Shown piece by piece: positions 4,895-5,150 of a DNA stretch of 53,120 nt. The notes under the pieces were generated by a model. It saw only the letters and a program-made list of their open reading frames with translations. It did not search any database and had not been told where the DNA came from. The first letter of the stretch is position 1; each line of letters begins with the position of its first letter. Source of the stretch: Escherichia coli. Lineage in GTDB: Bacteria; Pseudomonadota; Gammaproteobacteria; Enterobacterales; Enterobacteriaceae. Location: assembly GCF_003334255.1 (NCBI RefSeq), contig NZ_QOWU01000036.1. One strand, given 5' to 3'. A program made the translations under genes and the position numbers.

Positions 4895-5150
4895 ATAGTG
4901 AATCCGCTTATTCTCAGGGCGGGGCGAAATTCCCCACCGGCGGTAAATCAACTCAGTTGAAAGCCCGCGAGCGCTTTGGGTGCGAACTCAAAGGACAGCA
5001 GATCCGGTGTAATTCCGGGGCCGACGGTTAGAGTCCGGATGGGAGAGAGTAACGATTCTGTCGGGCATGGACCCGCTCACGTTATTTTGGCTATATGCCG
5101 CCACTCCTAAGACTGCCCTGATTCTGGTAACCATAATTTTAGTGAGGTTT
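4895..5150 (+). promoter_or_regulatory. FMN riboswitch (RFN element / sroG) in ribB leader
   Basis: Leader contains conserved RFN aptamer segments (TTCTCAGGGCGGGGCGAAATTCCCCACCGGCGGTAAA ... GGACAGCAGATCCGGTGTAATTCCGGGGCCGACGGTTAGAGTCCGGATGGGAGAG) followed by a U-rich tract just upstream of the ribB ATG. Confidence 0.85.

Follow-up and report, generated by a model that had tools for sequence, protein, structure and literature searches.

The ubiK-ribB region, the ribB promoter, and a candidate ubiK promoter

The DNA analyzed was a stretch of 53,120 nucleotides from the chromosome of Escherichia coli (contig NZ_QOWU01000036.1; hereafter the window), in which the ubiK and ribB genes are divergently oriented. 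The ubiK (yqiC) coding sequence, located between positions 4494 and 4784 on the minus strand with its ATG at 4784, encodes 96 amino acids and was recognized by the NCBIfam model NF047835 (UbiK; 150.1 bits, cutoff 100). The ribB gene for 3,4-dihydroxy-2-butanone-4-phosphate synthase (5158 to 5811, plus strand) was recognized by TIGR00506 (287.7 bits, cutoff 177.45), and both assignments agreed with the RefSeq annotation. Downstream of ribB, the terminator scan detected a plus-strand hairpin of the intrinsic-terminator type (5842 to 5873) with a T-run, comprising a 13-pair stem and then ATTTTTCCCT; this element (5842 to 5883) is the end of the ribB transcription unit. In the E. coli strains cM8a and 13C1065T, an IS1 element has inserted between ribB and yqiD, shortly after the stop codon of ribB (window 5812 to 5900; L082:1613-2650). 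Its placement in the riboswitch leader was ruled out, as it lies downstream of ribB.

In the Rfam 15 scan of the whole window, RF00050 (FMN riboswitch) was matched at full length between 4906 and 5054 on the plus strand, with a score of 120.9 bits (E 9.2e-28) against a gathering score of 66.2 bits and with model positions 1 to 138 of 138 covered. The 3' end of the aptamer is 103 nt upstream of the ribB ATG on the same strand, and RefSeq carries an 'FMN riboswitch' at the identical position, in 100% identical DNA, between ubiK (minus strand) and ribB (plus strand). All the defining features of RF00050 that can be checked in silico were found, namely the score, the six-helix junction, the location in the leader of a riboflavin gene, and mutually exclusive platform structures. 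The element is the ribB FMN riboswitch of E. coli K-12, the 5' part of which (published nt 1 to 149, window 4906 to 5054) is catalogued as SroG RNA. It is already known, and no difference was found from the ribB/SroG element of Winkler 2002, Hollands 2012, Pedrolli 2015, Bastet 2017, and Eschbach 2024. The 1.5-kb region between 4400 and 5900 was found in all of the 5426 complete E. coli genomes, with an identity of at least 99% in 1568 of them. The search of complete E. coli genomes gave 5429 matches to the ubiK-ribB region, of which one was situated on a plasmid and not on a chromosome.

A first-pass annotation made from the letters of the sequence had assigned an FMN riboswitch to the leader of ribB, with ubiK running divergently, and had proposed a covariance-model scan and a secondary-structure prediction as checks. 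Its identification was borne out by the covariance model, the RefSeq annotation, and the experimental literature on the exact sequence, and the locus can be regarded as a positive control, in which a real, annotated riboswitch was recognized from raw sequence. The interval that it assigned, 4895 to 5150, has the aptamer inside it, but begins within the -10 hexamer of the ribB promoter (4894 to 4899), whereas the transcript has its 5' end near 4906. The 3' limit did not hold, as it stops within a run of seven U residues and loses the 3' arm of the sequestering stem (5153 to 5166) together with the AUG.

The ribB riboswitch controls the committed step by which riboflavin receives its four-carbon unit. 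It has been validated as a target of antibacterial compounds (roseoflavin, ribocil) and is a textbook case of translational control combined with Rho-dependent termination. Existing knowledge of it is unchanged by the present analysis. The additions to the published ribB work are comparative and consist of the promoter conservation, a candidate ubiK promoter, and compensatory changes in the platform hairpin H1; these data modestly strengthen the case for the helices described in the literature and suggest where the ubiK promoter probably lies.

Between 4400 and 5900, no promoter was detected by the strict sigma-70 scan. The ribB promoter was missed because it agrees with the consensus at only 8 of 12 positions, and it was recovered by a lenient scan together with conservation. 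It comprises the -35 hexamer TTGCTG (4871 to 4876), a 17-bp spacer, and the -10 hexamer TATAGT (4894 to 4899), which ends 6 nt before the transcription start at 4906. In an alignment of 80 Enterobacteriaceae ribB loci, the TTG, the 17-bp spacer, and TATAGT were each conserved in 80 of 80.

On the minus strand, the lenient scan gave a -10-like box, TACAAT (4819 to 4824), and a -35-like box, TTTATG (4842 to 4847), separated by a 17-bp spacer. The -10-like box, which reads ATTGTA on the plus strand, was present in 77 of the 80 relatives and was situated 31 to 36 nt from the ubiK ATG in 75 of 80; the conserved TAAA(C) block that corresponds to the -35-like box was at a fixed distance of 18 to 19 nt from the -10-like box, likewise in 75 of 80. 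This pair of boxes is the probable ubiK promoter. It predicts a transcription start near 4811-4812 and a 5' untranslated region of about 27 nt. A weaker box, CATAAT, is present at 4853 to 4858, from which a ubiK transcript would begin near 4846; a literature search gave no usable mapped start site for ubiK/yqiC. The two transcription starts would then be about 94 bp apart.

The candidate ubiK promoter (4819 to 4847, minus strand) is back-to-back with the ribB promoter (4871 to 4899), and neither overlaps the other or the riboswitch. The tight packing of promoters expected in the first-pass annotation is reasonable, as the -35 boxes would be separated by 23 bp. Its distance of about 110 nt to the ubiK start is right for position 4895 (110 nt), but the true 5' end of the riboswitch, at the ribB +1 (4906), is 121 nt from the ubiK ATG. 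It is the intergenic region that is shared, and the riboswitch itself lies outside the predicted ubiK promoter. The divergent ubiK-ribB order was retained in 79 of the 80 loci, the exception being a truncated contig. If the ubiK promoter is real, the back-to-back arrangement could couple the expression of a ubiquinone-assembly factor with that of a flavin-synthesis enzyme. In Enterobacteriaceae bacterium RIT714 (L058:1035-1182), an insertion of about 120 to 130 nt lies between the -10-like box and the TAAAC block (window 4830 to 4843), and the ubiK promoter of this strain must differ if the boxes are the -10 and -35 of ubiK.

Alternative pairings in the ribB leader

The pairing analysis showed that the six aptamer helices, P1 to P6, can all form in the window. 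P1 encloses P2 to P6 and pairs its 5' strand (4908 to 4915) with its 3' strand (5045 to 5052) at 8 of 8 positions in the OFF (FMN-bound) structure. The 5' strand of P1 is also part of the 5' strand of anti-P1, in which 4908 to 4920 forms 12 pairs with 5115 to 5130. The 3' strand of P1 overlaps the 5' strand of anti*-P1 (both lie within 5045 to 5054), and the published anti*-P1 strands 141-149 and 175-183 correspond to AGAGUAACG (5046 to 5054) and CGUUAUUUU (5080 to 5088), which are fully complementary. Anti*-P1 encloses the platform hairpin H1 (CGGG/CCCG, 5062 to 5075) and is followed in the platform by a short hairpin, H2 (5089 to 5099). The switching strand, 5115 to 5130, is the 3' strand of anti-P1 in the ON (FMN-free) structure, and its part from 5118 to 5130 is the sequestering stem's 5' strand in the OFF structure. 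This stem has 13 bp with U5159 bulged, and its 3' arm (5153 to 5166) contains the ribB AUG (5158 to 5160) and codons 2 and 3. Within the sequestering hairpin, an inner AAUUUU/GAGGUU helix covers the Shine-Dalgarno sequence GAGG (5144 to 5147), and a U7 run (5148 to 5154) is situated between the Shine-Dalgarno sequence and the AUG. P1, anti-P1, anti*-P1, and the sequestering stem have strands in common and give mutually exclusive OFF and ON structures.

The published numbering was mapped onto the window with nt +1 at 4906 (PMC11571811). The mapping is borne out by C175, G176, and U181 of that study, which are c5080, g5081, and t5086, by the complementary anti*-P1 strands, and by the published 282-nt construct, 'riboswitch plus 10 codons', which places the AUG at nt 253, window 5158. 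FMN-dependent protection of P1 and of the sequestering stem has been reported, with Kswitch values of about 176 nM and 206 nM, respectively, as has RNase H protection of nt 215-227 by FMN, in agreement with the switching strand (PMC11571811). The same work placed transcriptional pauses at 175/181 and 247-249, corresponding to 5080, 5086, and 5152 to 5154, which are inside the two U-runs of the platform; it found elongation complexes paused at 247 to be refractory to FMN, sensing being confined to an earlier transcriptional window, and reported no resolved structure for nt 150-210.

The minimum free energy (MFE) structure of 4895 to 5150 alone contained no P1, and its energy was unexceptional against shuffled sequences (z = -0.92). 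As to the folding check of the first-pass annotation, P1 to P6 are all formable, and the unconstrained prediction is uninformative. Free-energy folding by itself does not decide for or against the aptamer, and the covariance model had to be used together with folds under constraint. In ViennaRNA, the best structures with P1 forced and with anti-P1 forced were isoenergetic (-80.8 and -80.7 kcal/mol, respectively). When the MFE was followed by transcript length, P1 was present at 150 nt, anti-P1 at 215 to 247 nt, and the sequestering stem at 262 nt or more; this modeled succession fits the published FMN insensitivity at pause 247 and the earlier sensing window. In the unconstrained MFE of the full leader, the sequestering hairpin formed even without ligand, indicating that the ON state must be kinetically trapped during transcription.

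In the 80 relatives, 94.7% of the alignment cells of the OFF structure were in standard pairs, compared with 40-53% after the partners were slid by 1 to 3 columns, and all five covariation measures exceeded at least 499 of 500 shuffles. The ON structure was paired in 94.2% of cells. Helices P1 to P6 were 97-100% paired, except that the base of P4 has a single non-canonical pair, which is fixed, and P1, anti-P1, and the sequestering stem were 99.8-100% paired, the 13 pairs of the latter reaching 100%. The corresponding values were 98.1% for H1 and 95.3% for the anti*-P1 strand CGUUAUUUU. H2 was paired in 29.7% of cells, in a segment where length varies and the alignment is unreliable. The aptamer, the switching helices, and the promoter were nearly invariant, and AGG/GAGG of the Shine-Dalgarno sequence was invariant. 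The U7 run was exact in 54 of 80 relatives, and nearly all the others were U-rich with one substitution and/or a shorter run.

True compensatory changes were seen only in 6 of 8 pairs of the P4 extension, in 2 of 4 pairs of the hairpin of the P3 loop, and in 4 of 4 pairs of H1. No compensatory covariation was found in P1, anti-P1, or the sequestering stem among the 80 relatives. Since both strands of these helices are invariant, their comparative support consists of conservation and consistency only. The substitutions observed in the shared strands of relatives were transitions that kept both alternative pairings: A5121G retains its pairs with U4914 in anti-P1 and with U5163 in the sequestering stem, and the substitutions at 5048, 5049, and 5052 preserve both P1 and anti*-P1. 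This pattern is as expected for strands under dual constraint.

Insertions were found in the P3 loop (window 4944 to 4964) of several relatives. They measured 132 nt in a Pseudocitrobacter metagenome-assembled genome (L020:1168-1299) and in Kluyvera genomosp. 3 (L037:1169-1300), and 59-66 nt in Citrobacter sedlakii, Salmonella arizonae/diarizonae, and Kluyvera genomosp. 1 (L012, L016, L017, L043). The 132-nt insert was about 75% identical to a dispersed, unannotated intergenic E. coli repeat, which occurred in 4563 of 5426 genomes at a median of 4 places per genome; we take the insert to resemble ERIC/IRU elements. The aptamers with short inserts were detected by Rfam (106-110 bits), and both aptamers with the 132-nt insert were missed at the gathering threshold.

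Regulation of ribB by the riboswitch

The pairings and the published data are consistent with the following course of events. Transcription would start at about 4906 from the sigma-70-type promoter (TTGCTG, 17 bp, TATAGT), and the first 149 nt would fold into the six-helix FMN aptamer. Binding of FMN while RNA polymerase is still in the platform (before about 5150) would lock P1 (4908-4915/5045-5052). Strand 5118 to 5130 would then remain free to pair with 5153 to 5166, by which the AUG would be buried and the Shine-Dalgarno sequence covered by the inner helix, so that translation initiation would be blocked and transcription would be terminated by Rho within the leader or shortly beyond it. 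Without FMN, 5080 to 5088 would capture the 3' strand of P1 to form anti*-P1, and the 5' strand of P1 would pair with 5115 to 5130 to form anti-P1, leaving the ribosome-binding site open and ribB expressed. This account as a whole, an FMN riboswitch of ribB with P1/anti-P1 switching, AUG sequestration, and Rho termination, is in our judgment very probably correct. Against it count the lack of compensatory covariation in the switching helices, the ligand-free formation of the sequestering hairpin in the MFE of the full leader, and the lack of a published structure for nt 150-210. Its aptamer match, alternative pairings, their conservation, and the conservation of the promoter come from the present analysis, and the binding of FMN, the dependence on Rho, and the sites of pausing from the literature; the precise position of the rut site and the promoter of ubiK are those that we infer. 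Deletion of the riboswitch has been reported to derepress ribB and riboflavin production.

A C-rich, G-poor stretch from 5066 to 5125 (C 33%, G 18%), where the C/G ratio of 1.82 is the highest in the leader, is a candidate rut region; it is partly paired in the predicted structures, and the rut site within it is not delimited. The literature places rut sites in the ribB riboswitch and its platform (PMC5499598).

The FMN riboswitch of B. subtilis ribD (ribDEAHT) belongs to the same aptamer family, has the same ligand, and is also an OFF switch for riboflavin synthesis. However, it works through an intrinsic terminator and antiterminator, whereas E. coli ribB combines sequestration of the ribosome-binding site and AUG with Rho and has a platform without such a terminator. 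If ribB were a switch of the ribD type, FMN would allow an intrinsic terminator hairpin with a U-run to form in the platform. Two U-runs do follow structured RNA, UUAUUUU at 5082 to 5088 (after H1) and U7 at 5148 to 5154, the first of them being U6-U7 in many relatives, and Pedrolli 2015 is cited as reporting control at the transcriptional level. The terminator scan, however, detected no terminator-like site on the plus strand between 4906 and 5157. H1 has just 4 bp and is 6 nt away from the U-run, and the U7 run is located between the Shine-Dalgarno sequence and the AUG. Moreover, the U-run at 5082 to 5088 belongs to the 3' strand of anti*-P1, that is, to the FMN-free state, both U-runs match mapped pause sites, and transcriptional control of ribB is lost in the rho R66S mutant (termination score 3.1; PMC5499598). 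Such a mechanism is accordingly highly improbable. Given the blank terminator scan and the use of the first U-run as a strand in the FMN-free helix, the U-rich expression platform described in the first-pass annotation, the U-runs of which are present, is a platform for pausing, sequestration, and Rho and not an intrinsic terminator.

The contribution of Rho could also be indirect, with ribB being a purely translational switch in which termination results from the untranslated ribB mRNA and not from a leader rut site exposed by the ligand. The burial of the AUG by the sequestering stem and of the Shine-Dalgarno sequence by the inner helix favors this reading, Bastet 2017 showed indirect coupling for thiM and suggested that it may be common (PMC5499598), and the stretch from 5066 to 5125 overlaps strands that are paired in both states, so that ligand-specific exposure is not obvious from its sequence. 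We nevertheless consider it unlikely, since ribB was classed as a direct Rho-controlling riboswitch, as opposed to the indirect thiM (PMC5499598), FMN makes nt 184-193 more accessible (PMC11571811), and Hollands 2012 is reported to have reconstituted Rho-dependent termination in the ribB leader in vitro without ribosomes. The segment from 4906 to 5054 might instead be mainly a stable trans-acting small RNA, SroG, with distant targets and with cis control of ribB as a secondary role. SroG has indeed been seen as a discrete species with a mapped transcription start and is described as having no known function. However, SroG and ribB are transcribed from a single promoter as one transcript, SroG has the same extent as the aptamer, which is what early termination or processing of the leader would give, and the pattern of conservation matches the core of the Rfam aptamer. 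To our knowledge, no trans target of SroG is known, and this possibility is extremely slight.

The Rho-assisted sequestration switch preferred here for ribB has counterparts in E. coli thiM, thiC, and lysC. These riboswitches similarly have a platform with an anti-P1 and a sequestering stem, involve Rho, and have a pause near the AUG that bounds the co-transcriptional sensing window; their aptamers and ligands differ from those of ribB.

Invariant platform block and other features of the window

The block ACUCCUAAGACU (5103 to 5114) was nearly invariant in the 80 Enterobacteriaceae, yet none of the published helices (P1, anti-P1, anti*-P1, and the sequestering stem) includes it; it falls where C most outweighs G in the leader. 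When the MFE is computed without constraints, the block pairs with the FMN-binding joiner UGGGAG (5040 to 5045). A pairing of CUCCU (5104 to 5108) with GGGAG (5041 to 5045) is speculative; neither side varies except in two relatives (L062, L075), in which the pairing is lost without compensation. It is a rather doubtful proposition that the block is a Rho-loading site or pairs with UGGGAG 5040-5045 so as to maintain the apo state, and/or that the back-to-back promoters couple ubiK and ribB expression. CUCCU was also considered as an anti-Shine-Dalgarno mimic and rejected, as it formed only 3 bp with GAGG when aligned by hand.

Several features were noted elsewhere in the window. An uninterrupted open reading frame of 837 amino acids (1095 to 3608, minus strand) adjoins ygiL (3659 to 4210) and is taken from its position to be a putative fimbrial usher. 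In strain ER1709, an IS2 transposase gene was found upstream of ygiL at the place matching this reading frame (L001:1-538); the window is therefore not derived from that lineage, although the ubiK-ribB region was identical. A full-length match to the ES173 small RNA (RF02753) was detected between 33040 and 33103 on the minus strand (99 bits; gathering score 90). Matches to naRNA4/CssrE (RF02564) were detected from 38883 to 38953 on the plus strand and from 49923 to 49999 on both strands (92.6, 61.0, and 60.1 bits), and these are REP-type palindromic repeats.
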